In this document: piece by piece, positions 16,164-37,456 of the stretch
Layout of the letters: the number at the start of each line of letters is the position of its first letter
Position numbering within the stretch: position 1 is the first letter of the stretch
DNA from: a virus
Virus record (IMG/VR): IMGVR_UViG_3300035670_000079
Coordinates: 1-64,000 of that record
DNA: 64,000 nucleotides
Reading direction: 5' to 3' (one strand)
Made by a program: the position numbers and the translations under genes
Notes under the pieces: generated by a model
What the model saw: only the letters and a program-made list of their open reading frames with translations
Databases searched by the model: none
What the model was told of the DNA's origin: nothing

Positions 16164-16214
16164 CTTAGAGTTGTAGGTTACTACGAGTATTAGTACCATT
16201 CTTGGGAGATAGCT

Positions 16215-20293: not shown

Positions 20294-21231
20294 CAGTTCA
20301 CAGGGATGAGTTGCAGGTAAAAATACAAGAGCTACTGGATAAGGAGCCTACCCTAACTATTAGGGAAATTGCTGACGAGCTTAGACACTGTCAGCAAGTT
20401 GTCAGCGATACTATGAAAGCTATGGGAGTTAAGTCTCTACGCGAGCGTAGGACTGCGGATGCTGTTATGCGTATGCGGATGCTCTTGCAGGATGCGCCTG
20501 AGATTACGTTGGCTGAGCTTGCTGCTAATCTAGGATACTGCGAGGAGTATGTAAGGGGGATGGCTAAAGCTGCGGGCATTACGCTTAAGCGTAAGCCGGT
20601 TGCTGTTAAACGGTATTCTAAACTTAGTTCGGATAAGTACGAAGAGATACGTGTACTTCGCCGCACAGGTAAGACGTTACGCCAGCTTGCTAAGCAGTTC
20701 GGTATAACTTATCAAATGGTATCCCTTATCTGTAAGGGGATTAAGGTTGAACGTGAGCCTAAGCTGATTATACCTAAGGCTGAGCTTGAGCAGGCTATTA
20801 AGTCTGATCCTGAGGCTGATCTTAAGAGCCTCGCAGCTAAATTTAACAGTAGTGTATCCCGTGTACGCTATGCAATACAGCGATACGGGCTTAGTTACAA
20901 GTCTAAGCTGTACCGTCCGTGGAGTAAGCTTAACAAGATGTATGATGCGATATTGGCATCGGGAGTTAAGCTCACTAATAATGAGCTGTATGCTCGCTTA
21001 GGGGTTAGCCGCGTTCACGGCGGGATTATTACGCTGCGTAGGCGACGTAAGGGTTTGCCTACGATGAACCCTAAGACAAAGACTTACTCTCCCGGCCCTA
21101 GTCCGGAGGTGGTAGCACAGGTAGAGGCTACGCTTAATAGCGGGCTTGGTGTAACAGCTACTGCTAGAGAATTAGGTCTTAAGCATACTCAAGTAGCTTG
21201 GATACGGCGGAAGATGAAGCGAGTACGCTGA
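20290..21231 (+). CDS. multi-HTH DNA-binding protein (paralog family member 3)
   Basis: ATG 20290 has an ATGA overlap with the upstream gene. Modules KYEEIRVLRRTGKTLRQLAKQFGITYQMVSLICKG and RRRRKGLPTMNP...SPEVVAQV. Confidence 0.6.
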   Translation: MTVHRDELQVKIQELLDKEPTLTIREIADELRHCQQVVSDTMKAMGVKSLRERRTADAVMRMRMLLQDAPEITLAELAANLGYCEEYVRGMAKAAGITLKRKPVAVKRYSKLSSDKYEEIRVLRRTGKTLRQLAKQFGITYQMVSLICKGIKVEREPKLIIPKAELEQAIKSDPEADLKSLAAKFNSSVSRVRYAIQRYGLSYKSKLYRPWSKLNKMYDAILASGVKLTNNELYARLGVSRVHGGIITLRRRRKGLPTMNPKTKTYSPGPSPEVVAQVEATLNSGLGVTATARELGLKHTQVAWIRRKMKRVR

Positions 21232-23100: not shown

Positions 23101-23204
23101 TACTCAATTCATGTACTTTCTAATAATGAAAAAGTTAGATATTTTGACGAATTTAGTCACAAATGGTTGGAATTGTTGTAAAAAGGCCTACAGGATGACA
23201 AGAC

Positions 23205-23774
23205 ATGTTTACTGTTGTTGATACTGCCGGGTTCCGACATGACTGGCTTGATGCTAAGCCAGTCATATTCCTTGCCAATACACGTGATCCGAGTGAAGCC
23301 TATGATATGTATAGGCGTGAAGGCTATAAAAGCCTTCACGGATCGTCAGTTACAGTGGCTCTGTTGCAGGATATGAGTGTGTATATCACTGTGTCTGCTG
23401 CACCGCTCATTGATGTAGTTATGCAGAACGCTATGTTACGTGAGGCGTTTACTCAAGTTTACGATGAGTATGACTATGACTCACTTGAGGATGTTGCTAA
23501 TGATCTTGCAGAGGCTTTCTGCACCAATACGTTAGAGGAGCCGCACTTACGGGTTCTTCTAGATGTTGTGAATACTTATAGGAAGTGGATTTTGGATGCA
23601 TACGACATCCCATTGCTCATTGGTTTTAATGGTGAGGGGTATATTTATAGGTTAATCAGTACGCCCAAGGTTATTAGCAGGCTCAGTCTTACGCTGGATG
23701 TGGCACAGATTCGTGTGAATAAGGCTGCGTTGTTGCAAGCCTTGCAAGCAACCTCCTCAAGTAATATTCCGTAG
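23205..23774 (+). CDS. hypothetical protein
   Basis: Track ORF. Confidence 0.55.
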   Translation: MFTVVDTAGFRHDWLDAKPVIFLANTRDPSEAYDMYRREGYKSLHGSSVTVALLQDMSVYITVSAAPLIDVVMQNAMLREAFTQVYDEYDYDSLEDVANDLAEAFCTNTLEEPHLRVLLDVVNTYRKWILDAYDIPLLIGFNGEGYIYRLISTPKVISRLSLTLDVAQIRVNKAALLQALQATSSSNIP

Positions 23775-24365
23775 GTGACACAAATGCAATTTAACTACGA
23801 CAACGACACTGGAATGGGTAAACTCATTAATAGAGGTGCTATCATACCTATTACGGATATCGACGGTGAGGTTATGGGGGAGATTGCTGATAAGTACTTG
23901 CAGCGTGTGTTCTTGCAACTTGCTGCTTATGATGTTACTCTTGGGCAGTTAGCTGAGAGTATTAAGGATTCGCAGGTAACTAAGGCCAAGTTATTGGGAA
24001 TGGCCGCACTGGTTAAGCAGTTGCCGGGCACTGCTGACGATATTCGTGAGGATATTGACAATAAGTACCCAGTGTATGCCAGCATGGTGGCATCACTGGT
24101 GGCGATAGTGGCCACTGCGTATAATCGTAAGTATCCGGAAACGCCTTATAATATCTCTGTGATTAGGTATCAGCTCTCTGATGGTGAGCAGTCCGGTTGC
24201 TTGGCCATGTGCAATACTGATAAGATGCGTGAGATAATGGAGGAGGACGGCGGTACCGTTACAGAAGTTCGTGGTGATACGCCTAATACTGCTGAGGTTA
24301 CTTTTAAGTCACCTACGGGTAAGACCAGTCTTAGCGATATTCAAGGTGATCCTAGCCTGAATTGA
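23775..24365 (+). CDS. hypothetical protein
   Basis: Track ORF starting at GTG 23775. An alternative ATG is at 23784. Confidence 0.55.
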   Translation: MTQMQFNYDNDTGMGKLINRGAIIPITDIDGEVMGEIADKYLQRVFLQLAAYDVTLGQLAESIKDSQVTKAKLLGMAALVKQLPGTADDIREDIDNKYPVYASMVASLVAIVATAYNRKYPETPYNISVIRYQLSDGEQSGCLAMCNTDKMREIMEEDGGTVTEVRGDTPNTAEVTFKSPTGKTSLSDIQGDPSLN

Positions 24366-24419
24366 GCTTACTAGTCTATATGCTTGTGTGATCACACTTA
24401 ATTCTCTTGAAAGGTTGAC

Positions 24420-25661
24420 ATGCCGTTTTTGACTTGTGCTTCTGATTTTGTCTACATGGCCGGTAATACGTCTAATGCCATTGTAGACACATTACCAGCC
24501 GGCGTATATACGCTGGATTACAACAAGTTTAGGGGGTGGTTGTTTACGCCGACTACTATGTACACTGTTCCGGAGACTCTTTACGGTAATACTGTTAGCC
24601 GGGCAGATAGGGTTATGCAGTCGTTTAATGCCCGCAGCACCGGATTAGGTGTACTGCTTAGTGGTAGGAAAGGTGCCGGTAAATCCCTATTGGCCAAGCT
24701 TATTGCTCTTAGGTGCATTGAGGCAGGTATTCCTGTAGTTACTTTGCAGCAGGCTATTGCTGGACAGGACTTTACTGGTCTGATTACGGCTATTAATCAA
24801 CCGTTGTGCGTATTTGTAGATGAGTTTGAGAAACTGTATATTCCCAATGATAATGAGGAGACTAATCCTCAAGCTCACCTACTTACATTGCTTGATGGGG
24901 TTACTCATAATGATAAGAGGCTCTGGCTATTTACTGCTAATAGTTCTGGTAGTGTGCATGAGGCTTTGCTCGGTAGGCCCAGTCGTATTTTTTACAACTT
25001 CAAGTATAAGGGGCTTGATCCGGAGGTGATTACAGAATACTGTAAGGACAACCTCAAGGATAAGTCTAGGGCACAGGACGTACTGGCAATAGGCCGAAAG
25101 CTTGAATTGTTTGAGTTCGACGGCCTGAAGTCAGTAGTAGAGGAGATTAATAGGTATCCTGATATTACTACTGAAGAAATTTTCGCGAGCCTTAATTTGG
25201 GAGATATCAAATATACGCTGGGTGATTGGCAGACTTACCAGATGGATATCGAGATAACCCCTAAAGCTACTCGTGGTAAGTCTCTTCATGAGATTAAGCC
25301 TTCGGTTCCGGCACACCTTAGTAGGAACTATATGCATAGTGTTGGCATGACTGATAGTTTCCGAATGTCGGCTACACTTGAAGCAGGGGAGCATACCTTG
25401 CTGTTTGATAATGCATATAGTTTGATAATTCGTACTATCGAAGGTATGGGTAGGGATGAGGACGATACTACCGTTATTACGGGTGTGTGTCATTGTGTTA
25501 ATGGTAAGTATCTTATTCTTACACCTACGGAAAAGTGTATTCAGAAGTGGCGTGACGATATTGCCCGGAATCTTATGGTCTTAGGTGATACCAAGCATAC
25601 CACAAAGGTGCTGGGTACGTATACAATTCGATTTACACCTGTCATTGATGTGGAGAGGTAA
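24420..25661 (+). CDS. AAA+ ATPase
   Basis: Walker A GRKGAGKSLLAK, Walker B CVFVDEFEK, sensor-1-like LFTANS, and GRPSRIF. Confidence 0.8.
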   Translation: MPFLTCASDFVYMAGNTSNAIVDTLPAGVYTLDYNKFRGWLFTPTTMYTVPETLYGNTVSRADRVMQSFNARSTGLGVLLSGRKGAGKSLLAKLIALRCIEAGIPVVTLQQAIAGQDFTGLITAINQPLCVFVDEFEKLYIPNDNEETNPQAHLLTLLDGVTHNDKRLWLFTANSSGSVHEALLGRPSRIFYNFKYKGLDPEVITEYCKDNLKDKSRAQDVLAIGRKLELFEFDGLKSVVEEINRYPDITTEEIFASLNLGDIKYTLGDWQTYQMDIEITPKATRGKSLHEIKPSVPAHLSRNYMHSVGMTDSFRMSATLEAGEHTLLFDNAYSLIIRTIEGMGRDEDDTTVITGVCHCVNGKYLILTPTEKCIQKWRDDIARNLMVLGDTKHTTKVLGTYTIRFTPVIDVER

Positions 25662-25791
25662 CGAGGATACGCCCATTACGGCAGACATTAAGTTAATAGA
25701 TTACATAAATGAGCCGGCAGACTCAGTGCTGGATTATATATTGAAGCATCATCTCAGCTACGCTATAGCTAAGGGGTTTCTCGACAACTGA
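25648..25791 (+). CDS. possible small protein
   Basis: Internal ATG of track ORF 25585..25791 that overlaps the ATPase stop. It ends just before a strong terminator. Confidence 0.3.
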   Translation: MWRGNEDTPITADIKLIDYINEPADSVLDYILKHHLSYAIAKGFLDN

Positions 25792-25812
25792 GTTTACGCG
25801 CAAAGAAACTTA

Positions 25813-25847
25813 CTCGCAAGCACTTGCAAGTGCTTGCGAGTTTTTTT
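25813..25847 (+). terminator. rho-independent terminator built around the CTTGCAAG core
   Basis: Perfect 11-bp stem ctcgcaagcac/gtgcttgcgag with loop ttgcaa, followed by T7. Confidence 0.9.
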
Positions 25848-25886
25848 ATGCCCATAGCTAGAGTCACTTAGTGTTACACTTACAGA

Positions 25887-26106
25887 GAATTTTAGCACAC
25901 CGAAAATTTTAGCACACCAAAAAATTTTAAGGCCCGGCCGAGCGTAAGCGAGGTGACACAAAGAATAACACATAAGAGAGAGAGAGAGAGAGTATAGAGA
26001 TAGAAGTAAGGCATACAGGTAGGCGCACGCCTATACCAAAAATTTTAAGCGAAGGCCTATACCAAAAATTTTAGCGAAGGCCCGTACCAAAAATTTTAGA
26101 GGCCGG
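25887..26106 (+). repeat. six dispersed copies of (ACC)AAAAATTTTAG
   Basis: Copies lie near 25887, 25902, 25919, 26035, 26061 and 26085. The third and sixth lead directly into box/polypurine units. Confidence 0.8.
25921..26012 (+). repeat. box + polypurine unit 1 (forward)
   Basis: Box ggcccggccgagcgtaagcgaggtgaca is followed by a largely purine stretch that includes (GA)n. Confidence 0.85.
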
Positions 26107-26200
26107 CCGAGCGGAGCGAGGTGACAGTTAAGAGTAATATAAAGAAGAGAAGGAAAGTATAGGAAGAGAGGAGATAGTAGAGGGGGAGTAATAGGTAGTG
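26091..26200 (+). repeat. box + polypurine unit 2 (forward)
   Basis: Box aaaattttagaggccggccgagcggagcgaggtgaca is followed by a ~75-nt A/G-rich tract. Confidence 0.85.
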
Positions 26201-26511
26201 TTCTCGCCCTTTCTGTTGCAAGCCTTGCATAACCCATAACTTCCATAACTTCCCTAGAGTAGACTTTAGTTAGTAGACTTTAGTTCCCTGTTCCCTAGAG
26301 TAGACTGTAATTTTAGTGCTAATTTTAGTAAAAATTGTAGTTTTATAGCTATTTTTATGCGTATTTTGGTCATTTACGAGTAGTTTTAGTACTATTTCTG
26401 GTAGTTTTAGTGAAAAATTTTAGTCTTGGTGCTAACTCACGCACAGCGGGGAATTTTTGGTCGGAATTTTCGGTAAAATTTCTGCTAAAATTCTTGGTAC
26501 GGAATTTTTGG

Positions 26512-26746
26512 TTGCAAGTGCTTGCAATTATGACCTAAAAGACGGTCTGAACTGTAAAAGTGTACACACTTTTAGAAGTAAAAGTTGCAAGCGCTTGCAA
26601 GTATAACCAAAATGATGGTTTGAACTGTAAAAGTGTACACACTTTTAAAAGTAAAAGTTGCAAGCGCTTGCAAGTACAACCAAAATGATGGTTTGAACTG
26701 TAAAAGTGTACACACTTTTTAGTTTCATAATTGCAAGTACTTGCAA
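26512..26746 (+). repeat. 73-bp tandem repeat x3 plus a fourth palindrome
   Basis: TTGCAAG..CTTGCAA palindromes start at 26512, 26585, 26658 and 26731. Each unit also contains aaaagtgtacacactttt, an 8-bp inverted repeat. Confidence 0.9.
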
Positions 26747-26875
26747 GAATAGAGGTGAGCGGAATCAGAATGAAAAATTTTCGCTTATTGTTATAGTTAG
26801 TGGGGCGAGGCCGGCAGAGCCGGCTTAGTGGGTTACGTAGCGGTATAGTTGCGGCTCGTAGTGCGGTTGGGCGTG

Positions 26876-26944
26876 TTAGTGTCTCTTATCTCTGTTCTAA
26901 TCTCATGCCAATTATTAGCACCTCGCTTACGCTCGGCCCGGCGG
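26876..26944 (-). repeat. box + polypurine unit 3 (reverse)
   Basis: cacctcgcttacgctcggcccggc is the reverse complement of the unit-1 box. On + it is preceded by a pyrimidine-rich tract. Confidence 0.8.
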
Positions 26945-26954
26945 TTAAATTTTT

Positions 26955-27040
26955 CGGATAGTCCGCTGCCGAGGCGTTAGCCGAGGTGACACAAAGTAGT
27001 GAGGAGATAGGTAACAAGGTAGTGGAGAGAGATAGAGGCG
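26955..27040 (+). repeat. box + polypurine unit 4 (forward, divergent from unit 3)
   Basis: Box ccgaggcgttagccgaggtgacaca is followed by aagtagtgaggagataggtaacaaggtagtggagagagatagagg. Confidence 0.8.
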
Positions 27041-27162
27041 TGCCACGCTGGTTAATTTTTTATGCGCCAGGTAAAAGCTTGCAAGGCTTGCAAGTGCCCT
27101 CAATAATTTTAGCGGTAGGGATATTTCCGAGGGCTTTATTTTAGTGGGGAATTTATGTACTC

Positions 27163-27240
27163 AAAATTTTAGAGGCCCGGCCGAGGCGTTAGCCGAGGTG
27201 ACACAGATAAGTAATAAGGAGAGGAGTAGAGATAAGAATG
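27163..27240 (+). repeat. box + polypurine unit 5 (forward)
   Basis: Box aaaattttagaggcccggccgaggcgttagccgaggtgacaca is followed by gataagtaataaggagaggagtagagataagaa. Confidence 0.85.
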
Positions 27241-27326
27241 AAATCGAATCAAAAAATTCCCGTTTTCTGTAATGATACTGGAAAATTTAGAAATAGTGGT
27301 TGGGGCGGCGCGTTAGCCGCCCTCCC

Positions 27327-27399
27327 GCCATTTTGGCGTGCTCATTTTGACTGCTCAAAAAATAGGCAGCCATTTTGGCAGGAAATCGGCCAATTTGGC
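27327..27399. repeat. three GCCAWTTTGGC near-palindromes
   Basis: gccattttggc at 27327 and 27369, and gccaatttggc at 27389. Confidence 0.75.
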
Positions 27400-27464
27400 A
27401 GCAAAATCGCGTGCCAATTCTCAAAAATGAGAAAAAAATTTTATTATTATCGAAAATGATAAAA

Positions 27465-27510
27465 AATTTTCCCGAAAGTGAGAAACTTTTTCCCGAAAGT
27501 GAGAAAATTA
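27465..27510 (+). repeat. direct repeat ttttcccgaaagtgagaaa x2
   Basis: Two adjacent copies read directly from the sequence. Confidence 0.8.
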
Positions 27511-27584
27511 TCAGAATTTCGCGGATTGGTATGCCATAATGGCGTGCCAAACTCGCGGCGGTCGCCGGGAATTCTCATTTGTGG

Positions 27585-27672
27585 GAATCTTCTGTTTTTC
27601 CCTTCTCTTTTGTGGGAATTGGCATGCCATTTTATGTAATCTGGATAATTATTATCACCTCGCTCCGCTCGG
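27585..27672 (-). repeat. box + polypurine unit 6 (reverse)
   Basis: tcacctcgctccgctcgg is the reverse complement of the unit-2 box. On + it is preceded by cttctgtttttcccttctctttt. Confidence 0.8.
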
Positions 27673-27780
27673 TAGTGTAGTCAAACTGATACTGCCCGGT
27701 TTCTGACGGACAGTGCCCGGTTTCTGTGCAGTGCGAAGTCAGGGTATTTTCGGCGATCCTCTAAAATAGTTGGTCCGGCC

Positions 27781-27934
27781 TGCCAATTTGACACCCGCGC
27801 GAAAGCGGAGTAAACCCGCTTGTGGACAGCGGTTGACGGCCGGCTCCTAGTGGTCGTCTGCGTCGGCTCCCCTGCGTACACTGAACACATGCCAATTTGG
27901 CACATGCGTCGAAGCGGAGTAAACCCGCTTATGG
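27781..27934 (+). repeat. two ~45-nt copies of tgccaatttgRca...gaagcggagtaaacccgctt
   Basis: Copies lie at 27781-27826 and 27890-27934. Each ends in the hairpin aagcgg-agtaaac-ccgctt. Confidence 0.8.
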
Positions 27935-27958
27935 GCGGGGGCGGGCGGGTGATTTGGT

Positions 27959-28055
27959 TAGCCAAATTTGCATAACCAAATTGGCATAACCAAATTTGCC
28001 GAACCAAATTTGCCGAACCAAATTGGCATAACCAAATTGGCATAACCAAACCTGG
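27959..28055 (+). repeat. 14-bp tandem array x7 (AACCAAATTGGCAT / AACCAAATTTGCCG)
   Basis: Unit boundaries are 27974, 27988, 28002, 28016, 28030 and 28044, plus a degenerate first unit. Confidence 0.9.
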
Positions 28056-28180
28056 AGCGTGCCGCACGTTCACCAGTGTCCGGAGGTGACCTTCTGACGA
28101 TAATTCATAACGTGGCATAATGGCATATCGTGGCAAGCGTATAGTGACACGGGCGGAACTATACACGGGCATCGTCACTC

Positions 28181-28216
28181 TACTGTGTCCGCAGTAGGTA
28201 CTGTGTCCGCAGTAGG
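28181..28216 (+). repeat. 18-bp tandem repeat x2 (tactgtgtccgcagtagg), each an inverted repeat
   Basis: Two exact adjacent copies. Each unit contains TACTG..CAGTA. Confidence 0.9.
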
Positions 28217-28487
28217 TCACGCCCAGCGTGGACCGTAGGTGCCTGCCTTACTAAGCATGCGGCACCTGATGCGATGCTATGGGTCCAGAATCGCCTAGGA
28301 TGCGTTCTGACGCATCGAATCGGCGGACGATATATCCATCGTCCTGATAGGCTATCGTCGATCCTACGCGAAATAAGGTTTTACTTATACTAGGTCACGC
28401 AAGCGGGGACTGGTTGCAAGTGCTTGCAAGTGCAGGACTTGTGACTACGGGTTTCACCGTTGGTACGCGGTTTGCGTTTCTTTATAT

Positions 28488-28532
28488 CACGCCCAGACCG
28501 GCCACGCCCAGACCGGCCACGCCCAGACCGGC
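28488..28532 (+). repeat. 15-bp tandem repeat x3 (cacgcccagaccggc)
   Basis: Three exact adjacent copies. Confidence 0.9.
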
Positions 28533-28691
28533 CACTTGCCGTAGGTGACATGCGAGCATGAATTGAGATTCAGTCTCAGCTAAAAAATTAGTCCAGAAAA
28601 GTAATCGTCTGGGATAGACACTGCCGATACTGGTCGTCATAGTCCGCTTCGTTGGTTGTGTGCTGATGACGCTAACTGAAAGGAATGATTG

Positions 28692-28790
28692 ATGAGTAAG
28701 ACAGAATTCGTGATTGCTCTGTCAGTCGCTGTGATGTGGGCCGCGTGTGTGGCTTACAGTTTCTGTCTGGTTTTCTGTAAGGGGTTTTGA
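28692..28790 (+). CDS. possible 32-aa hydrophobic peptide
   Basis: MSKTEFVIALSVAVMWAACVAYSFCLVFCKGF, preceded by gaaagga. It ends 2 nt before the next ATG. Confidence 0.3.
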   Translation: MSKTEFVIALSVAVMWAACVAYSFCLVFCKGF

Positions 28791-28792
28791 AA

Positions 28793-29167
28793 ATGGCCGA
28801 TGCACGTAATCTTGCTCAGAATCTGGAGTCTCGTTTCAAAGGCAGTCGTCTCGCTGCCGTTGCTGCTGAGTGTCTGGAGTTGTTTCGGCGGGCTGATCGG
28901 CTCCAGAGAGCCGCTCAGTTGGCGTATGATGAGTCAGTGGGTGCTTATGCTGATGCTGATGAGTCCGGCGAACAACCCTACTTGCGGGCTGAGGAGATGC
29001 TTGGACATAGGGCGTGGCAACTCCGGGGGCAGGCGATTGCCTGCCTCAATAGGGAATTGGCCACGCTACCGATTGAGGCTCGGTATAACGTGTTGTCCAT
29101 TGCCTGCGGGCTTGGCGGTGTGCTGGACGATGCCTTGCCGAAGGCTGAAACGGTGCCGGCTCTGTGA
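28793..29167 (+). CDS. hypothetical protein (GC-rich island gene 1)
   Basis: Track ORF 28787..29167. The ATG is at 28793. The sequence is helical and Ala/Leu/Arg-rich, and its codon composition is visibly G/C-skewed. Confidence 0.55.
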   Translation: MADARNLAQNLESRFKGSRLAAVAAECLELFRRADRLQRAAQLAYDESVGAYADADESGEQPYLRAEEMLGHRAWQLRGQAIACLNRELATLPIEARYNVLSIACGLGGVLDDALPKAETVPAL

Positions 29168-29169
29168 GC

Positions 29170-29207
29170 CTGCTGGAAGCAAGTTTGACTCTCATCCGCG
29201 TTTGTTT
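29170..29207 (+). repeat. 38-nt island leader repeat, copy 1
   Basis: ctgctggaagcaagtttgactctcatccgcgtttgttt. It is followed by CCGGAGGTG at 29249. Confidence 0.85.
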
Positions 29208-29286
29208 CCTGCCCGGCGTGGTGCCGGGCGGGGTTTCATGGTCGGCTTCCGGAGGTGATCCGGGAGCCAGATAAGGGGTGTGTGCT

Positions 29287-29964
29287 ATGTCTACGATTAG
29301 GTGCTGGAATGCGTCTGCGTTTGCTCTGCTGACGATGCCTCTGCCTGTCGGGGCAGATGGACTCGTGCGGAGTCGTGACGTGCGGTCCTCTCTGCGGGGT
29401 GCGGGGTTGATCGAGTGCACCCGGCTCCGGGAGTCGGTCGAAACCGGCGGGCTGGAGCGTGTGTCTCTGGCAGCGACGCTGCGGGAGGGTGATACTCTCA
29501 CTCTCCCGGCGGGCTGGACGGTTGCGGGGGCAGTCCCCCGGAGCAAGCTGGTTCATGTGGTACGTGGGGAACTGCGGTCCCTCACGGCATCAATTGATGC
29601 CGCGGTGCACCACTACGCCGCCCTCGCCGGCGATGTCTCCGATGCCGAACGCAAGGCTTCGCGGGATGATGCCTATCGACTGATGCGTGAAATGGGCGAG
29701 AGCATCGAGTCCCTCGTTCCGGCGGGGCGGTTCGGCGTGCTGATGGTGCCGCCGGCGTGGCTGATGGCCCTGCTGCCGTCAGCCTTCCGGGTCAAGCCGT
29801 CAGCGGGCGGACGCTACCGTGGTCCGGGCATCACCGCTCCGGCCGTGTCCCTGCTGTCGGCGGACGATCTGATCGTCCCGTCTGCGAGTGACTCACAGCC
29901 GTCTGCCGGTGAGTCGCTGGAAGTCGTCTTCGCTGAAGCTGCGGCGGACTTGCTCAACGCCTAG
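29287..29964 (+). CDS. hypothetical protein (GC-rich island gene 2)
   Basis: Track ORF 29278..29964. The ATG is at 29287. Confidence 0.55.
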   Translation: MSTIRCWNASAFALLTMPLPVGADGLVRSRDVRSSLRGAGLIECTRLRESVETGGLERVSLAATLREGDTLTLPAGWTVAGAVPRSKLVHVVRGELRSLTASIDAAVHHYAALAGDVSDAERKASRDDAYRLMREMGESIESLVPAGRFGVLMVPPAWLMALLPSAFRVKPSAGGRYRGPGITAPAVSLLSADDLIVPSASDSQPSAGESLEVVFAEAAADLLNA

Positions 29965-30010
29965 CTGTTGCAAGTGCTTGCCAGTGCGGGGCGGGCCACT
30001 TCGGTCCGCC

Positions 30011-30048
30011 CTGCCGGAAGCAAGTTTGACTCTGTTCCGCGTTTGTTT
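30011..30048 (+). repeat. 38-nt island leader repeat, copy 2
   Basis: ctgccggaagcaagtttgactctgttccgcgtttgttt. It is followed by CCGGAGGTG at 30053 and ATG 30068. Confidence 0.85.
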
Positions 30049-30067
30049 TTGTCCGGAGGTGCTGAGA

Positions 30068-30292
30068 ATGATCGAAGTCAAGCGTGAACCGTGGGGCGTC
30101 CGCCAGTATGTCCGGCGTCTGCAATGGGAGGGCGGGGCAACCATCCCCGCCTGCGTCTGGCGGGGATGGCGGGAAGCCAAGCGGGACCGTGTGCGGTCTG
30201 CCGTACGGTCTGCGGGCGGCCGCTTCCGCATTGAAGCGGTCCGCTCCGAGGAAGGGCGGCGGATTGTTTCCGCCGTTATCGTTGAGTTTTGA
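30068..30292 (+). CDS. hypothetical basic protein (GC-rich island gene 3)
   Basis: ATG 30068 lies 8 nt after GGAGGTG. It is in frame with track ORF 29888..30292. Confidence 0.5.
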   Translation: MIEVKREPWGVRQYVRRLQWEGGATIPACVWRGWREAKRDRVRSAVRSAGGRFRIEAVRSEEGRRIVSAVIVEF

Positions 30293-30426
30293 ATAATTCT
30301 GGGATAACCGATATGCCGTGAGATAATTTTATCACGCGGCATATCGGTCCGCCATTCCGGCAGGCTGTCAATCTGACAGTTTGCCGGGGGCATGCCAAGA
30401 TGGCAGGTCCGGCGGGTGCGCAAACA

Positions 30427-30605
30427 GTCAATATGTATTTTTTTGCGTATTTTTTATTTTGCGTATTTTTTTGCGTATTTTTTATTTTTCAAACTTTTAG
30501 TCAATATGTATTTTTTTGCGTATTTTTTATTTTGCGTATTTTTTTGCGTATTTTTTATTTTTCAAAACTGGCAACCAATACGTATTTTTTTTTATTTTTC
30601 AAAAT
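30427..30605 (+). repeat. AT-rich 73-bp tandem repeat (~2.4 copies) built of GCGTATTTTTT sub-repeats
   Basis: Units start at 30427 and 30500, with a partial third from ~30573. Confidence 0.9.
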
Positions 30606-30671
30606 TCTAACTCTCTCAGCGTCCGCGAACAGGCATGCTCGAAACAATACATATTGCTCGAAAGAGCTAAC

Positions 30672-30716
30672 GTGCTTGGCGTGCTCCCGGTGCTTGACGT
30701 GTTCGACGTGCTTCGG
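30672..30716 (+). repeat. 9-bp tandem repeat x5 (GTGCTTNNC)
   Basis: The five units are gtgcttggc, gtgctcccg, gtgcttgac, gtgttcgac and gtgcttcgg. Confidence 0.8.
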
Positions 30717-30788
30717 CAGTTGCAAGACTTGCAAGCGTGCTACCTTAGTTAGGTGCGCGAAAACGGCAGATACGTGTAAAGTACGGAT

Positions 30789-30817
30789 TTGACTTACGAT
30801 TCACAGTGTGCTATAAT
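30789..30817 (+). promoter_or_regulatory. near-consensus sigma70 promoter TTGACT-N17-TATAAT
   Basis: Sequence is ttgact tacgattcacagtgtgc tataat. The -10 lies about 90 nt upstream of ATG 30909. Confidence 0.75.
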
Positions 30818-30826
30818 ACACTAGGG

Positions 30827-30874
30827 ATGTATCCTACGTTGAGACGTATCCTACGTTACGATGTATCCTGTATT
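30827..30874 (+). promoter_or_regulatory. three 17-bp-phased repeats (GTATCCTACGTT-like) in the 5' leader; candidate operator
   Basis: atgtatcctacgtt at 30827, acgtatcctacgtt at 30844 and atgtatcctgtatt at 30861, immediately downstream of the -10. Confidence 0.6.
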
Positions 30875-30908
30875 AAGACATACCTCAAACTAAAAAGGTG
30901 CTAGAAAG

Positions 30909-33161
30909 ATGCCCAGTTTTCCAAGTAAACGCCCGTATGGTGACAGTAGTGAGTCTTACAGTAGCAGTGAGTCTTACAACAGTGAGTCTTACAGCGATAA
31001 TGAGCTTGACAACAGTGATAGTGACAACAGTAGTCCTGTAGATAACGCTGAAGATAATAGTTCCGCTAGTAAAAGTTTATCTGTAGCGGGTGTTCTGACA
31101 CGTGCCGAAGAGGTGCATGCCAGCATTGCCACTAATTGGGTAGTACTTATATCTGATAGCCCTGCACCCACTACTCCTGAACGTATGCTCAGAGAAGCTG
31201 CAAAGCTTGGCGAGACTACTAAGCTCGGTGAGACTACTGAATTCAGTGAGGCTGCTCTGAATGGGCGTAGTTTAACACCGGAAGAAACCGCTAAAAGAGA
31301 TGCATTGCTGGATTTTGGGTTAATGGAGAGATTCCACAATGTAGCTTCCCAAGTCGCGGAATACTTCAAATTAGATAGGGCTTGTGCCTTGCGGCTGCGT
31401 AAGGCAACTGCCGCAGATTTTCAAGAGATAGCTAAAGGTAAGTGTAGTCCTAATAACCTTGCGGATCTCACGCTTGTGCGGTTAAGCCCATGTATTAGTG
31501 AGGGTTATGACCTTGGTGAGCTTTGCCAATGTGATTACAGCCGACACTCCCATACAGTAAAGCTCCTGTGGGATGTGCGGCGGGACATGGAGAAACTCCG
31601 CGATAACCCACACGTCAGACAAGAGGATAAGCCTAAATTGATAGAAGCAAGCCGTAAACTCTACGAAGCTGAGCATGTACTTGAGTTACTGCAATTCAGC
31701 CTTCTTAAATTTGCAAGTGCTTGCAAGCTCGGTGTTGTCACTATGCCGGAGTTGCATTTACCGAAAGACGCACGTGGTAACTTCGTTGCTCCTATGCTTT
31801 ACAGGGAGGAGGAATACGATACCAGCGGTATCCTGATATTGGAGGGGGAATTAATGCCGATGAATGGCGAAGTTCCAAGTAATCCGCGCACATGGCTACC
31901 TTCCAGCGCTAATAGTCGATCTGAATTCACCGAAAATGACTACGAATATCTTAAACATACTGCTAGTGCCGGGCCTTTTCAGCCGCAACCAAATAACTTA
32001 GTTGCTGGCATTCTTGTCAATATCCTGATGAATAACAGCAAAGCTTGCCGTAACTTGACTGACCTTATTCGGGAATTTCCAGTTAGACCTATGGCTGCCG
32101 TACATAATGAGGCTGCTGTACCTAATAACACTGCTGGTATACTCCGTCCGGTAACTCACGTAGTGTTGCCACACTTTGACAGAGCCAGTGTTATCCCTGC
32201 TACTAATTACGCTGTGGTGGAACTTTCGGATAGTGTTGATAACTGTGGGGAAACTATTGAAAACTATGCTTACAATCACCCCGATAATGACGGTCCTGTA
32301 AAACCCCTCACTACTAAGCAGGCTATTCGTAAATTTGGTTATCGCAAGACCGGTGAAATGGGTATTATGTCAATAAGTGATGCCAATCTTGCCACTAGCA
32401 ATGTCACAACCGGAATTACGGAAGTGTTCGGTAATGATGGTATTGAAGTGGATAGGTTTACACTCAATACACGGGAATATCGTCCTGTTGGTATCTCTTC
32501 GTGTAAATTTGAAGATATCTCATTTTTCATAGAAGTTCCGGGCATGCTTACCAGAGCTGCCCTTGCAGATGCCCTGCGTGAGTGCGCTCAAACATATTCG
32601 CATAGGTACACCACTAGTCACGAAGTTTTCATCAATGCTGACAAAAATCTTCGTGATATCCTCAGGCCTAATGAGTACCGCAAAGCGTTGGTAACAGCCG
32701 ATAACTACTATGCCTTTACGTTACGGCAGCCGGAGCAGCGATTAGTGTTTTTTTCTTATGGTTATGTACAGCCGCCGACATTGTCACAGCTTTACTCTAC
32801 TATTATCACTGGGTTAGAGCGTACATGTTACCGTGGGCGGACAATACTTCCTCGCCAATTTGTAGATGGCCGAGAAGTTATGAAATTATCAATTGAAGAC
32901 TTCAGTGCGGACGGGTCGCTTGCACAGCATAAGGTTATAGGTGAGCTTGAGATATCATTGGCTGCGGAACCTCCTATTGAAGATATCCCAGTTCTCGATA
33001 AAGCAAGCTTCGATAAGTATGGTAATCAAACCCGTACCCCCACAATCGTGGGCAAGTACAGCGTTAAAATTGCAAGTCTTGCAACTTTGAAGTTCACACC
33101 TTGTTATGATTCCGCTTATGCTAGTGGTGGCTCTGACGACACTTTTTCTGAAACACTGTGA
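30909..33161 (+). CDS. large hypothetical protein (750 aa) with Ser/Glu/Asp-rich N-terminus
   Basis: Track ORF. It is the first gene after the strong promoter. I recognised no motif. Confidence 0.7.
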   Translation: MPSFPSKRPYGDSSESYSSSESYNSESYSDNELDNSDSDNSSPVDNAEDNSSASKSLSVAGVLTRAEEVHASIATNWVVLISDSPAPTTPERMLREAAKLGETTKLGETTEFSEAALNGRSLTPEETAKRDALLDFGLMERFHNVASQVAEYFKLDRACALRLRKATAADFQEIAKGKCSPNNLADLTLVRLSPCISEGYDLGELCQCDYSRHSHTVKLLWDVRRDMEKLRDNPHVRQEDKPKLIEASRKLYEAEHVLELLQFSLLKFASACKLGVVTMPELHLPKDARGNFVAPMLYREEEYDTSGILILEGELMPMNGEVPSNPRTWLPSSANSRSEFTENDYEYLKHTASAGPFQPQPNNLVAGILVNILMNNSKACRNLTDLIREFPVRPMAAVHNEAAVPNNTAGILRPVTHVVLPHFDRASVIPATNYAVVELSDSVDNCGETIENYAYNHPDNDGPVKPLTTKQAIRKFGYRKTGEMGIMSISDANLATSNVTTGITEVFGNDGIEVDRFTLNTREYRPVGISSCKFEDISFFIEVPGMLTRAALADALRECAQTYSHRYTTSHEVFINADKNLRDILRPNEYRKALVTADNYYAFTLRQPEQRLVFFSYGYVQPPTLSQLYSTIITGLERTCYRGRTILPRQFVDGREVMKLSIEDFSADGSLAQHKVIGELEISLAAEPPIEDIPVLDKASFDKYGNQTRTPTIVGKYSVKIASLATLKFTPCYDSAYASGGSDDTFSETL

Positions 33162-33176
33162 AATTAAGGTAAAAAA

Positions 33177-34430
33177 ATGCCAGCAAGCTATGACACACCT
33201 AAAGGTATCCGCGAGTTAGCGGGAATTATGAGTTCACCGGGAGTTACTACCCATGTTGCCGGTAAAGTTATTAGCAATCTAGCTAAGGCGGGAGACCTTG
33301 CCACTAAGAGTGGAGACCTCGCTGCCGTGTCCGGTAAACCGGTAATCAATAGTTTTACTGAGCTTAACCGTGAGTTGCGAGAGCTTACGGCTGCTTCCGA
33401 TAACGCCTCAGGTAAGTTACAGGAACTTTTGAATACCGACAATCCTGAGATTACCTGCAATCCTGAGATTACCTGTGACGATTTTAGTGAAGCGGTTGAG
33501 GGCGCCGCTAAGCCGATATTTGACGTAACTCCGTTTGATGAACTAGTATTTCAGGTTCGCAGGGAGCATGCAGGTAAGCGACCTCCGGGAATTACGCTTG
33601 CCGTTACTGAGCGTGATCCTGATATAGGCGGATCATTAGATTCATTCTTTGTCGTAGATTCTACCAATAATTTCAGTTTTAAGTTCTCGGAAATGCAGTC
33701 CGGAATAACGCTACACTTGGCGGATTACGCCGATGAGGCATTGATTTCTAAGATGTTACCCAATACTCACCCAATTTCACAGATTCCTCTCAATGGCCGG
33801 GCTTTTTACGGTGAGTGCCAGAATCACTGGATTAGTGCCGTATTTCGGATGCCTAATATACCTAATAGGGTACCGGGTATTCTACTATCTCCTAGTCGGC
33901 TTGATCATCTAGAAACTAGAGTTCGGGACATGCGGTACGCTATGGACCGCAACTACGATTACTCTGCCCCAATGGACGGGTGGTTATATGACTTTAGGAC
34001 ACTTTCTGACCATATCATAGGTGTAATGGAGCGTGTTGTAAACAAAGTTCACCCTGACTATGGACATATAATGGGTGTAATATATATTGCAAATAGGTTG
34101 ATACAGTCTTATAGGTCTGTGTGTAAACTCTGCCGTGACTATGGGGTTATAGCAATTAATGCCGGAGATATAGACGAGCTGGTGGTGCGGATTAAGTCAC
34201 TGTTACCCAAGTATGAATCTATTCGTGCTAATATACATAGCACTGCTCGCGGAGAGTTACTGCAAAAGCTAAATAAGCGCATAAAAAATGCCGGTTATAA
34301 CGCACGTTTTATAGATACCGATGAGATGCAGATAACGTCCAGAGGTGATCGCCAACTTGACTTAGGTAGAATCACATTTAAGCACGAATATGATAATATA
34401 TTTACCATTAAATACACCTCTCGCATCTAG
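33177..34430 (+). CDS. hypothetical protein (417 aa)
   Basis: Track ORF. Confidence 0.65.
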   Translation: MPASYDTPKGIRELAGIMSSPGVTTHVAGKVISNLAKAGDLATKSGDLAAVSGKPVINSFTELNRELRELTAASDNASGKLQELLNTDNPEITCNPEITCDDFSEAVEGAAKPIFDVTPFDELVFQVRREHAGKRPPGITLAVTERDPDIGGSLDSFFVVDSTNNFSFKFSEMQSGITLHLADYADEALISKMLPNTHPISQIPLNGRAFYGECQNHWISAVFRMPNIPNRVPGILLSPSRLDHLETRVRDMRYAMDRNYDYSAPMDGWLYDFRTLSDHIIGVMERVVNKVHPDYGHIMGVIYIANRLIQSYRSVCKLCRDYGVIAINAGDIDELVVRIKSLLPKYESIRANIHSTARGELLQKLNKRIKNAGYNARFIDTDEMQITSRGDRQLDLGRITFKHEYDNIFTIKYTSRI

Positions 34431-34436
34431 GAGCAC

Positions 34437-35324
34437 ATGATGGGCGACGACAAGATCCTTGAATATGCTTCCATTGATGCAGATTATGAGGATGTAATCT
34501 ACAAAACTTTAGAATCTGCTATATTCAATTCAGGGAAGTCTCCCCCTATATTAGAAAGCGTTCCTAAGCATATACTTTTTGGTCACACAGGTCATCCGAT
34601 AATCGGCAATACCTTACCGCAGGATACAGATAATGCCGAGGAATCTGATGCTATGGAAATTTTCGGTGACAGTGATGAGGGCGTGCCGCTAAAGGTGGAT
34701 GACCCACTTAATAATCGGTTGCCGCGACTTGTCGAGCCTCCAACTAAGCTGACATATCGGGATATTATTGAACCTGTGATATGCGACCCCTATGAGCGCT
34801 GTACAATAAGTGGCGAATTTATGCAAAAAATTTATACACAACTACGCATCCTTCTCGATGAGTCCCCTGAACCTCTGTTAGGGAGATACAGAAGTGATAC
34901 GAGTTTCTACGTAGAGAGATATAGTGTTCCGGGCATGTCCTTTTACTACGCTGCGGTATTGCAAGCACTTGCAGATACGCTATCTCACAAGGCCCACTAC
35001 TTTAATGGGATAGCCCCAAGAGTGGGTACGTTGGTTAAAGATAGGTTTTACAGATTTTGTGAAATTACTCTAGTGAATGGCCATAACAGGACTCTTGGGG
35101 TATTCCGTGTAAGTGTTGAACCAATTGGGCCTGCGCCACTGCCAGCCGGTGTTTACACCGTAATACATAACAACGCTAATAGGATTGAGAATATTGTTGG
35201 GTTAGCTCTGCCTATACTTAAGTATCAATTTACTCCTATATTTGTACCGGTTGAGTATTCCGTGGCGGCAATCCACGACGAGGTTAAAACTACACTGGAA
35301 GGTATTAAATACAGTGTCAATTGA
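34437..35324 (+). CDS. hypothetical protein (295 aa)
   Basis: Track ORF preceded by aggagcac. Confidence 0.65.
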   Translation: MMGDDKILEYASIDADYEDVIYKTLESAIFNSGKSPPILESVPKHILFGHTGHPIIGNTLPQDTDNAEESDAMEIFGDSDEGVPLKVDDPLNNRLPRLVEPPTKLTYRDIIEPVICDPYERCTISGEFMQKIYTQLRILLDESPEPLLGRYRSDTSFYVERYSVPGMSFYYAAVLQALADTLSHKAHYFNGIAPRVGTLVKDRFYRFCEITLVNGHNRTLGVFRVSVEPIGPAPLPAGVYTVIHNNANRIENIVGLALPILKYQFTPIFVPVEYSVAAIHDEVKTTLEGIKYSVN

Positions 35325-36036
35325 AGAAAGCTTCTCTAATCCTTCCGTAGGTGCCCCTATACTGGAATCAGTGGAAGACTTACTAGGTAAGCTCCCTGTA
35401 ATATTCCCCATGTTCCAGCGTCCGACTACGCCGACCTACGTATTAAAGGGGTGTCTGTATAGTGGCAGGACCATCTCCTGTGATCCGCATAGTAGGTCTA
35501 CCACTGAGGAAGATATTAGCGTGTATAATTTCTTTGTAAACGAGTATAGGCACGCTGTAGAAGAGGCCTTAAGACTAGCCTCGCGCCACCATAACACGTC
35601 TGTAATGGAGGTTGCCGCTGGGGTATTCCTCCGGACTATTGAAGGTTGCTATCTTGCTACTTATGATGCTAGTGTGTGGGAGCCGCTCAAGACTCTTACA
35701 TTTTGGACTATGTCGGAATTTATTCGGAACAGATTCTTGGATGTATTCACACAGCATGCCAACACTAGTGGACATCTCAAGCTACACGGTACTTTCCTAG
35801 CCCCCAATATGTACGGGTTACCAATGATTAAAATTGGGTACTATCACCCAGCAGTGGCCTCTAATGGTAATTGTGTCGATTTCTTGGGTAATCTCTATTT
35901 AAATTTCGTGACACGGGGTAGGCCCGTAACTGTTAAATTAGCTGGGCATGGTGATAGTATTGAGGTGGAGTCTGTACAGCTACCTTACATGATGCGCGGA
36001 CAATTTGAAATGCATCCAGAGGCTAGGGGAGTGTAA
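35314..36036 (+). CDS. hypothetical protein
   Basis: Track ORF 35242..36036. The start is uncertain: GTG 35314 overlaps the upstream stop, and ATG 35410 is an alternative. Confidence 0.5.
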   Translation: MSIEESFSNPSVGAPILESVEDLLGKLPVIFPMFQRPTTPTYVLKGCLYSGRTISCDPHSRSTTEEDISVYNFFVNEYRHAVEEALRLASRHHNTSVMEVAAGVFLRTIEGCYLATYDASVWEPLKTLTFWTMSEFIRNRFLDVFTQHANTSGHLKLHGTFLAPNMYGLPMIKIGYYHPAVASNGNCVDFLGNLYLNFVTRGRPVTVKLAGHGDSIEVESVQLPYMMRGQFEMHPEARGV

Positions 36037-36040
36037 GATT

Positions 36041-36613
36041 ATGCCAGATGGTCAGAAGCTGCTAGACGGTCTTTCAGGATACCACTCGCTGTATACAGAC
36101 GGTTCCCTAAATACTGCCCGCAATGCCGGCGGTTATGCAGTAATTGCCCTAGTTAATAGGGGTGGAATAAATTATCCTGAAGTGCTTACCGTAGGTGCTA
36201 TAGCAGGAGCCACTAATAACATAGTAGAACTAGCCGGTATAGGTGAAGCTATGCTATTCTCACCTACATTGATATACAGTGACTCACGCTACGCGATTGG
36301 TACGCTAGCGGAGTGGTCAGATAAGTGGCGAGCTAATGGATGGGCACGCAGTGCTGGCCCGATAGCAAATCTAGCTATTGTAAAAACATTGAATCACGTG
36401 TATAATACACTTCAAACCCATAGCAACTTGCCGACGTTGTTACACGTCAAAGGTCATGCCGGAAATATTGGTAATGAAGCTGCTGACAGTGAATCTCGTA
36501 ATTTCATTGATAGGGCAGATTCAATTCCCAGTATTTCTGCATGGCTAGAGGGCTATAGGCAACGTGCCACACTGGTATTGCAGAGTCTTGGAAGTACTGC
36601 ACCAATCCCGTGA
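36041..36613 (+). CDS. rnh: ribonuclease HI
   Basis: Motifs LYTDGS..GGYAV, NNIVELAGIGEA, SDSRYAIGTL..W...W and VKGHAGNIGNEAAD. Confidence 0.85.
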   Translation: MPDGQKLLDGLSGYHSLYTDGSLNTARNAGGYAVIALVNRGGINYPEVLTVGAIAGATNNIVELAGIGEAMLFSPTLIYSDSRYAIGTLAEWSDKWRANGWARSAGPIANLAIVKTLNHVYNTLQTHSNLPTLLHVKGHAGNIGNEAADSESRNFIDRADSIPSISAWLEGYRQRATLVLQSLGSTAPIP

Positions 36614-36636
36614 CACTCAAAGGATTGACATAAAAC

Positions 36637-37449
36637 ATGTCTTCTGAACTTTCAGATACTCCCGCTACGTGTAGTAATCCTGAGACTAGTGTTAACCTAT
36701 CTAGCGTACCCGTTAAAGCTAATAGCTTGATGGTTAGCAAGTATGTTACAGTTAATAAAATTCCAGATGGGGTTATAGTAACTCCTAGCCTATTCGCCGA
36801 GGTTATGCGTCACCTATCGGAGAAGCGTCACCCGTATTACTACTCACGAGATTTACAGGACTCCGTTACCGTGGCAGAAGCTATTTCAAAGAGTGCATTC
36901 CCACTAGTTGTTTTCGCGTACTCCTCAAAGCCTGCTGAGGAGCTAGAGCCGCTATTTAAGTTAATGCAAGAAATGATGCTCACTGACTTCGGTGAGTATG
37001 GTCTTACCGTATTTGTGGCAACAGGCAACCTTAGCTGTGTTACGCTGCATGAGCTGGGTTTACCCGCTAAGTATGATGTTGCGTTTACATCGGCTTCGTT
37101 TGCCTCGCAGGATGCAAGCGCTTGCAAGCTTCAAATCACGGCAAGCTTGCTGCGTAATCTTTATCCTGATAGCTGGGTAGCAGGTTGTATTGACTTAGAC
37201 TTAATGACACCTGAATCCTTTAAGGCAGTACTGAAAACGGCTAAGTCACTATTCTTCTCTGTGGCTATAACAAATACGACTATACGAAGCTCTGTGAAGT
37301 ATGTGAAAAATACTGTCAATTACGCCAATATAAAATGGCAACTCTATAAGTTGGATTGTGCTGTATTTGCAAGTGCTGACATGTGGTTAGATGGTCTGTC
37401 TGCTGTGAAAGATAATCTAATGCTTGAGCATCATCCTTTAACCCAGTGA
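36637..37449 (+). CDS. hypothetical protein
   Basis: Track ORF. Confidence 0.6.
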   Translation: MSSELSDTPATCSNPETSVNLSSVPVKANSLMVSKYVTVNKIPDGVIVTPSLFAEVMRHLSEKRHPYYYSRDLQDSVTVAEAISKSAFPLVVFAYSSKPAEELEPLFKLMQEMMLTDFGEYGLTVFVATGNLSCVTLHELGLPAKYDVAFTSASFASQDASACKLQITASLLRNLYPDSWVAGCIDLDLMTPESFKAVLKTAKSLFFSVAITNTTIRSSVKYVKNTVNYANIKWQLYKLDCAVFASADMWLDGLSAVKDNLMLEHHPLTQ

Positions 37450-37456
37450 GGTAATC

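Follow-up and report, generated by a model that had tools for sequence, protein, structure and literature searches.

Phages often carry accessory cassettes of atypical composition, and two described kinds are the closest to the locus considered here: morons, a concept reportedly due to Hendrix and Juhala, and the mobile promoter/stem-loop cassettes (PeSLs) of T4-type phages. Morons are independently transcribed units of 'more DNA' with atypical G+C content, and the criteria by which they are recognised have been listed (PMC2920897). PeSLs mediate the insertion, deletion and swapping of orphan genes (PMC2839356, PMC4122927), which they flank in hyperplastic regions (PMC2839356). Here we describe a GC-rich island of 1.7 kb within a 64,000-nucleotide (nt) stretch of viral DNA (positions 1 to 64,000 of IMG/VR record IMGVR_UViG_3300035670_000079; hereafter the window). 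The island encodes a hydrophobic peptide (h32) and the proteins g1, g2 and, probably, g3. An original prediction, made from the letters of this DNA, had taken it for a moron that was acquired from a high-GC donor and has since been wired into phage regulation. We conclude, with a probability of roughly 0.55, that it is a genuine and conserved accessory operon, which entered the phage from a GC-rich source before the split of three lineages and which may have a host-directed role.

The cassette resembles a moron in lying between two phage gene blocks and being co-oriented with both, in its sharply different G+C content, in being bounded by promoter-like sites and strong hairpins, and in encoding small, probably accessory proteins of no known function. 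As for the control of their own expression that characterises morons, it offers promoter-like sites, an operator-like palindrome and a triple hairpin (z = -8.2), all of them matches to a consensus or to a predicted structure. It differs from classical morons in that these are absent from related phages, whereas every known relative of this phage carries the cassette (by construction, as the two relatives, contigs L005 and L006, were found through g1), and in that the homologues of classical morons often turn up among bacteria or in phages of other classes, whereas none was found for g1-g3. Moreover, it comprises four genes instead of one, sits in a large non-coding regulatory hub instead of between adjacent genes, and belongs to a window with no sign of a temperate lifestyle. 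The atypical G+C content and, as far as promoter-like sites and hairpins go, the moron-like architecture uphold part of the original prediction, whereas no donor, homologue or island-free relative was found to complete it, and the label 'moron' is plausible but unproven.

The G+C content of the island lies about 20 percentage points above that of the remainder of the phage (window mean, 45%). Across the 64 kb, 1-kb windows range from 0.41 to 0.51, with the exception of 28001-29000 (0.524) and 29001-30000 (0.648). At a resolution of 300 nt, the island core (28.9-30.4 kb) reaches 0.59-0.68; its right edge is sharp at about 30,420, with values of 0.35-0.41 by 30400-30550, and on the left a shoulder of 0.50-0.55 extends from about 27550. 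Windows of 700 nt outside the hub have a mean of 0.453, a standard deviation of 0.024 and a maximum of 0.533, which places the island peak (0.669) about 9 standard deviations out. The same holds for genes: g1-g3 have a G+C content of 0.58-0.66, as against 0.453 +/- 0.020 for 33 phage open reading frames (ORFs), the atypical composition expected of a moron, and a G+C content at third codon positions (GC3; GC1 and GC2 likewise for the first and second positions) of 0.57-0.73, as against 0.42 +/- 0.04. Sliding-window analysis therefore bears out the claim that the region is far more G+C-rich than its flanks, and the run quoted in support of it, ccggcggggcggttcggcgtgctgatggtgccgccggcgtgg, was located at 29721-29762. 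Codon usage was to be checked as well, and the island differs from the phage both in synonymous codons and in amino-acid content: ATA accounts for 0% of isoleucine codons in the island and 31% in the phage, and the corresponding shares are 53% and 13% for CGG, 74% and 31% for CCG, and 49% and 19% for CTG; ACG is likewise preferred in the island.

The genes of the island are as follows.

28692-28790, forward strand: h32, a hydrophobic single-pass peptide of 32 amino acids (aa); TTG at 28689 in the ORF list; called by JGI
28793-29167, forward strand: g1, 124 aa; listed from TTG at 28787
29287-29964, forward strand: g2, 225 aa; listed from GTG at 29278
30068-30292, forward strand: g3, 74 aa, a probable gene; called by the JGI, ENA and Logan pipelines

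All of these ORFs are present where they had been predicted, as are the long alternative and antisense open frames (28800-29258 on the forward strand, 29046-29546 and 29893-30423 on the reverse strand), which are by-products of composition. ORF length is in itself no evidence for genes here, since the longest stop-free stretch attains at least 226 codons, the size of g2, in 42% of dinucleotide shuffles. The decisive evidence is comparative. A search with g1 retrieved two diverged variants, P0004 (84% aa identity) and P0005 (81%), and the variant contigs are L005 (1847 nt, from sample SRR27946957, aligning with window positions 27962-29819 at 77% nt identity) and L006 (588 nt, from ERZ28615627). 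According to the method of Nei and Gojobori, the ratio of nonsynonymous to synonymous change (omega) of g1 is 0.20, 0.10 and 0.08 over the three lineage pairs, and that of g2 is 0.115 against L005, at a synonymous divergence (dS) of 1.27; dS spans 0.6-1.3 across the g1 and g2 comparisons. Both g1 and g2 are thus protein-coding and under purifying selection in their annotated frames, so that the coding signal named beforehand as a check is positive for these two genes. The hydrophobic ORF of 32 codons that had been noted ahead of g1 is also conserved, with homologues in L005 (MSKTEFAVALSIALAWAICFAYGVSLVMFKGF) and L006. Its maximum hydropathy over 19 residues is 2.12, and its stop codon precedes the g1 start by 2 nt, which suggests translational coupling.

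The contigs of the relatives do not cover g3, and it is supported only by its codon usage and by a ribosome-binding site that fits the consensus. When scored with a codon model trained on g1 and g2, the g3 frame reaches +0.29 bit/codon, the best of the six frames and equal to the positive controls, while the non-coding control segment 27700-28599 is negative in all frames; its codon usage resembles that of g1 and g2, and its ATG follows a consensus Shine-Dalgarno sequence, GGAGGTG. Judged by these sequence features, g3 is a probable gene. The codon-position pattern of G+C content (0.70/0.48/0.57 for GC1/GC2/GC3 in g1) is steady along the ORFs, with the second position lowest. It is against these results that one must set the suggestion that the ORFs are spurious and that the region is non-coding and serves as a structural element of the hub or in replication, its frames being open owing to high G+C content. 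The shuffles, the open alternative and antisense frames and a location with an iteron-like array on one side and an AT-rich block of repeats on the other would all fit such an element. In exactly the frames annotated for g1 and g2, however, synonymous change is saturated and omega is 0.08-0.20; this, the consistent codon-position pattern, and a codon usage common to g1, g2 and g3 that is missing from the control segment render it very improbable overall and effectively refute it for g1 and g2.

The window is a segment of a tailed phage coded on one strand, with genes for the large terminase (TerL), portal, capsid, RNase H, ThyX and an AAA ATPase. Its source is a novel tailed phage of roughly 100 kb and 45% G+C, whose kinship to sequenced viruses is only remote: TerL and capsid are 21% and 26% identical to those of known phages, and the window has no DNA match among 50,697 phage records. 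The island sits in a 5-kb, repeat-rich regulatory hub, with the AAA ATPase gene on one side and genes of the replication module on the other. Contigs of the same phage from other projects were recovered by exact-protein look-ups. L007 (JGI 3300034073) matches window positions 23101-30015 with 1 mismatch, L008 (JGI 3300034072) matches 26278-32115 with 2 mismatches, and L002 (ENA ERZ4201046) is identical to 27975-38677; together these contigs, from different projects and samples, cross the left and the right junction with 0-2 mismatches. A chimeric assembly of the phage with DNA of a GC-rich organism could be suspected from the short Logan contigs L003 and L004, which hold the island alone and end in the flanking tandem repeats, breaks that may make the region look detached in some assemblies. 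This reading is nevertheless refuted by the independent spanning contigs (two from JGI and one from ENA) and also runs against the presence of phage-wide motifs inside the island, and its probability is practically nil. The island is a genuine part of the phage and no misassembly, just as the original prediction had argued from these motifs.

At least six samples, drawn from three archives (JGI, ENA and Logan; L001-L004, L007 and L008), contain the same phage at 99.97-100% identity, a clonality across samples that is unusual for an environmental phage. The sole tRNA of the window, at 16074-16164, was identified by ARAGORN as tRNA-Ile(UAU). Its length of about 90 nt is unusual and points to either a long variable arm or an intron.

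Where did the island obtain its composition? In a partly ameliorated import, GC1 and GC2 are too high for GC3, a disequilibrium that is expected under the model of Lawrence and Ochman. For g2, GC1, GC2 and GC3 amount to 0.71, 0.55 and 0.73, as compared with about 0.52, 0.41 and 0.42 in the phage background. The first two values are those of a genome of about 70% G+C, whereas GC3 is much lower than in such a genome, and this is what marks an import that has ameliorated in part. With a two-state model, the GC3 of g2 in the ancestor common to the window and L005 can have been about 0.88, decaying towards 0.40. Since all three lineages carry the cassette and dS between them is so large, it predates their split and is old. 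Under the reading that we favour, the cassette would have been imported from a much more GC-rich source, either another phage or a host, and would have been in place when the three known lineages separated; GC1 and GC2, and with them amino-acid composition, would still mirror the source, and GC3 would have relaxed in part.

Several observations weigh against this reading. The island is equally GC-rich in all three lineages, and the small sample at hand does not show the net flux from GC to AT expected of an ameliorating import: of the polarised third-position changes in g1, 31 run from strong to weak bases and 26 from weak to strong, which is a balance, and a three-taxon likelihood analysis of 83 synonymous third positions of g1 gives an equilibrium GC3 of 0.60, a value of 0.40 being worse (twice the log-likelihood difference, 4.4). 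The substitution pattern of g1 thus hints that G+C is maintained and not decaying; given 83 sites and the bias of parsimony towards balance, it is only a hint, and the g2 pair is compatible with decay as well as with a stationary GC3. The aspartate and glutamate codons of the island (GAT 70%, GAA 44%) match the phage and not a high-GC genome, and h32 (G+C content, 0.475) and the 5' part of g1 are at background-like G+C. No island-free relative was found through TerL, DNA motifs, or protein and DNA patterns in viral, metagenome and genome collections, and no donor or outside homologue was found for g1, g2 and g3, the search being exhaustive for g2 alone, in contrast to the homologues elsewhere that mark morons, so that the argument for a high-GC donor is a purely compositional one. 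The promoters and terminators, finally, are consensus matches, and the function proposed is pure inference.

Part of this evidence can be read the other way, namely that the cassette is native and that its high G+C content, synonymous sites included, is held by selection or local bias without any recent or decaying import. Possible causes include the adaptation of early genes to the codons and tRNAs of a GC-rich host, with phage tRNAs serving the AT-richer remainder of the phage; selection on mRNA structure; gene conversion biased towards G+C at a recombination hot spot; and genes arising de novo in the GC-rich DNA of the hub, where long ORFs occur by chance. Such a cassette would account for a GC3 that is equally high in three lineages despite a dS of up to 1.3, for the balanced third-position changes and the preference of the likelihood analysis for 0.60 over 0.40 (p of about 0.04), for the complete lack of ATA codons in an island whose phage uses them elsewhere and has tRNA-Ile(UAU), for long ORFs that arise by chance in such a composition, and for the lack of a donor among the databases searched. 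The hosts of Streptomyces phages are GC-rich, and the nearest capsid relatives are low-GC Streptomyces phages, at an identity of only 26%. Yet the likelihood test concerns 83 sites of one gene, the parsimony polarisation is biased to balance at such divergence, and the g2 data fit decay from a GC3 of 0.88 equally well; a GC2 of 0.55 and Ala/Arg-rich proteins are not explained by selection at the codon level, and omega values of about 0.1, together with folded helices, speak against very young de novo genes. On balance we regard a native cassette as a possible but unlikely explanation. The narrower claim that G+C is actively maintained at about 60-70%, synonymous sites included, in a phage of 45% G+C appears improbable to us; island genes might then depend for translation on the tRNAs and codon pool of a GC-rich host until phage functions such as tRNA-Ile(UAU) come into play or, alternatively, the hub might be a hot spot of GC-biased recombination. 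If true, local base composition would be a programmed feature of the timing of phage gene expression.

Another rival concerns g2, which might be a separately mobile cassette bracketed by repeats and hairpins that recombine in the manner of PeSLs. It turns on the spaces between the genes, which hold the following features.

29169-29207, forward strand: first copy of a 39-nt repeat (the 'leader'), directly after the g1 stop codon
29208-29233 and 29244-29268, forward strand: two GC-rich hairpins between g1 and g2 (RNAfold, z = -2.4)
29986-30014, forward strand: a 12-bp GC hairpin between g2 and g3 (RNAfold)
30010-30048, forward strand: second copy of the 39-nt repeat, followed by 4 nt and then by CCGGAGGTG at 30053-30061
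30307-30414, forward strand: three consecutive strong hairpins that end the unit (RNAfold; inverted repeat I17)

The two 39-nt direct repeats are 92% identical, 841 nt apart, and flank g2 exactly; no further copy exists in the window. They also resemble each other more closely than the first copy resembles its counterpart in L005, a sign of conversion or recent duplication. A short repeated intergenic element and a stem-loop flanking an orphan gene in a plastic region do recall PeSLs. In contrast to PeSLs, however, no early-promoter motif lies in or next to the repeat (within it, TTGACT is followed by no sigma70-type -10 element, and a promoter scan finds nothing there), and only two copies exist. 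Neither was any shuffling seen: L005, which like the other relative stops short of the second repeat and g3, keeps the order of g1, first repeat and g2, with no presence/absence polymorphism, and the recovered contigs include no variant with g2 excised or with an empty site. Separate mobility of g2 strikes us as improbable, and we return to the ancient import of a whole operon as the preferred reading.

What had been described as a conserved 38-nt leader is this repeat, present as 39 nt. It had been said to be followed by CCGGAGGTG, which is accurate for the second copy, whereas 42 nt and a hairpin intervene at the first. The second of the two hairpins between g1 and g2 contains CCGGAGGTG (29249-29257). 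In L005, hairpins occupy the same places with a different sequence, CCCGCCGC...GCGGCGGG and GGCACCU...AGGUGCC; as both arms have changed and still pair, the structure has been kept. The CCGGAGGTG at 30053-30061 acts as the Shine-Dalgarno sequence of g3, 6 nt before its ATG. The triple hairpin at the 3' end folds at -74 kcal/mol (z = -8.2), and none of 200 shuffles was as stable. From the sequence, the simplest reading is that the promoter-like sites, h32-g1-g2-g3 and the 3' hairpins would form one rightward transcription unit, within which the intergenic structures would attenuate or process the transcript.

None of the island proteins could be assigned a function by homology. The protein g1 is acidic (isoelectric point 5.0) and all-helical, with four helices predicted by AlphaFold2 (AF2) at a mean confidence (pLDDT) of 68. 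In g2, a β-rich N-terminal part is followed by helices, an invariant hydrophobic segment (residues 149-167; hydropathy 1.66 at residue 149), through which the protein is possibly anchored in the membrane, and an acidic tail that is probably disordered. The very basic g3 (isoelectric point 11.4) is rich in arginine and tryptophan and plausibly binds nucleic acids, and h32 is a predicted single-pass membrane peptide. An exhaustive HMMER search of g2 against 1.84 billion representative proteins returned only itself and P0002, a repeat artefact; the searches made with g1 and g3 were weaker. As far as they reach, g1 is an orphan family with three known variants, all from the same locus, and g3 has no match in genome, viral or phage collections. 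For g1-g3 there is no Pfam or PHROG family at E <= 0.05, searches of PADLOC and NCBIfam gave nothing usable and sequence searches of the PDB were empty; g1 has two sub-threshold Pfam matches (E 0.07-0.10), and h32 has one weak PHROG match of unknown function (E 0.003). Searching the 50,697 phage records with the island proteins by tblastn found nothing, a match of g3 at E = 0.1 being dismissed. The single-sequence AF2 model of g2 has a pLDDT of 46 and Foldseek template-modelling (TM) scores below 0.25, whereas the Foldseek matches of g1 are generic helical bundles, none at E < 0.3. Profile and structure searches, of the kind that the original prediction had called for, yielded nothing usable for the three proteins. 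About half of the other phage proteins scanned are equally orphan, so that this status says little about origin.

The hub upstream of the genes, together with the second palindrome copy after g2, contains the following features.

27550-28690, forward strand: a GC-elevated non-coding shoulder (0.50-0.55) with many short inverted repeats (G+C profile, repeats)
27952-28063: an iteron-like array of about 7 tandem copies of a 14-nt unit, CCAAATTKGCMKAA, 95-100% conserved in L005
28094-28121, forward strand: a promoter-like site (CTGACG, 16-nt spacer, CATAAT, with the TG of an extended -10) from a consensus scan
28181-28217: two copies of an 18-nt repeat
28414-28429, no strand: a perfect copy of the phage-wide palindrome TTGCAAGTGCTTGCAA (motif scan)
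28488-28535: three copies of a 15-nt repeat
28615-28643, forward strand: a promoter-like site (TAGACA, 17-nt spacer, CATAGT) with a weak consensus match (9/12)
29968-29983, no strand: a copy of the palindrome with one mismatch, TTGCAAGTGCTTGCCA, immediately past the g2 stop codon

The sequence around the first promoter-like site (CGATAATTCATAACGTGGCATAATGGCAT) is identical in L005. The second lies about 45 nt upstream of the h32 ORF, and both of its hexamers are kept in L005 (TAGACG ... CATAGT), which makes it a candidate for the operon promoter on sequence grounds. Within the shoulder, the blocks 27962-28030, 28076-28200 and 28355-28440 are 88-100% identical in L005, above the identity of synonymous sites in the genes. 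Both strands of the shoulder fold better than shuffles (z of -2.9 and -3.8), so that DNA palindromes and RNA structure are not distinguishable there. The non-coding segment 28125-28490, between a promoter-like site and weak terminator-like hairpins, is crowded with short inverted repeats and 72-97% identical in L005, exceeding the synonymous sites of neighbouring genes; a non-coding RNA of about 350 nt is one possibility for it, a cluster of palindromes that bind proteins another. The iteron-like array may be a replication origin, and palindromes of the TGCCAAWWTGGCA type, related to its 14-nt unit, are dispersed over 27300-27900. A search of Rfam returned nothing in the hub besides a sub-threshold match to RAGATH-30 at 27226. 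A 179-aa ORF on the reverse strand (27681-28220, called by JGI) was rejected: it spans tandem repeats, and a 14-nt indel in L005 breaks its frame. The first 100 nt of L006, upstream of its peptide ORF, have no detectable similarity to the window or to the L005 counterpart; either this flank has diverged too far to be aligned, or another sequence borders the cassette on the left in that lineage.

The palindrome copies reported earlier, a perfect one at 28414 and a near one at 29968, were both recovered. The former is perfectly conserved in L005 inside a 97%-identical block, and in the window as a whole TTGCAAGTGCTTGCAA has 30 strand-matches with up to 2 mismatches, as against 0.06 expected. Copies of this 16-nt palindrome (TTGCAAGYRCTTGCAA) are dispersed through the genome and cluster in the hub, with sites at 2495, 4003, 8630, 11721, 25814-25839, 26512-26746 (four), 27079, 28414, 29968, 30720, 31711, 34959, 37112, 49578, 51720 and 59750. 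It is a likely site for a dimeric DNA-binding protein and a likely operator for a helix-turn-helix protein of the phage; proteins of this type are encoded at 19345-19992 and 20272-21231. At 25812-25841, after the ATPase gene, it is extended to a terminator-like 13-bp hairpin with a T-run, and at 26511-26751 three 73-nt tandem repeats each hold a TTGCAAG palindrome and a second one, AAAGTGTACACACTTT. Ten IMG/VR loci sharing the palindrome proved unrelated by tblastx.

The 9-mer CCGGAGGTG has 25 copies in the window, 20 of them on the coding strand, as against 0.22 expected. The three copies that had been reported in the hub (28080, 29249 and 30053) are present, and others lie, for example, at 365, 2884, 4755, 5365, 7492, 16631, 19867, 21103, 25020, 38893, 44247 and 55663. 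A role as a simple ribosome-binding site was rejected, as most copies are inside ORFs with no start codon after them; being mostly intra-ORF genome-wide, the 9-mer is no dedicated expression signal, and possible roles are those of a Chi-like motif or of one connected with methylation or packaging. L005 lacks the copies at 28080 and 29249 but conserves the palindrome at 28414, and the case for an island wired into phage regulation is weak.

To the right of the island, positions 30426-30600 form a T-rich repeat array (G+C content, 0.25-0.35) with two perfect 73-nt repeats of TTTGCGTATTTTTTA units, at which contigs break and which may be a DNA-unwinding element. Some 370 nt further on, at 30789-30882, a near-consensus sigma70 promoter (TTGACT, 17-nt spacer, TATAAT with TG; 11/12) and, after it, three 17-nt repeats (GATGTATCCTACGTT...) lie shortly before the gene for a 750-aa protein; this is likely to be a strong, regulated promoter of the replication module. 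The N-terminus of this protein is a low-complexity segment rich in Ser, Asp, Asn and Glu, which derives from 15-nt repeats at 30909-31050.

Under the preferred reading of an imported accessory operon, the cassette would be transcribed rightward as a single unit in the order of promoter-like sites (28.1 and 28.6 kb), h32 coupled to g1, two hairpins, g2, palindrome and hairpin, g3 and triple hairpin; the hairpins and the paired 39-nt repeats would set the relative expression or the processing of g1, g2 and g3. With low confidence, we suggest that its role is that of a host-directed accessory (exclusion, anti-defence or takeover), exerted partly at the membrane, a core function in replication or in the virion being unlikely.

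The island adds three new protein families and a micro-membrane peptide to a phage lineage with almost no characterised relatives, and, as anti-defence, exclusion and takeover functions are usually found in such cassettes, functional screens could reasonably include it. The less ordinary point is the persistence of a G+C anomaly of +20 points through saturating synonymous divergence: if this holds in more lineages, it bears on how fast, and whether, imports carried by phages ameliorate; otherwise, the cassette is an ordinary case of phage mosaicism.

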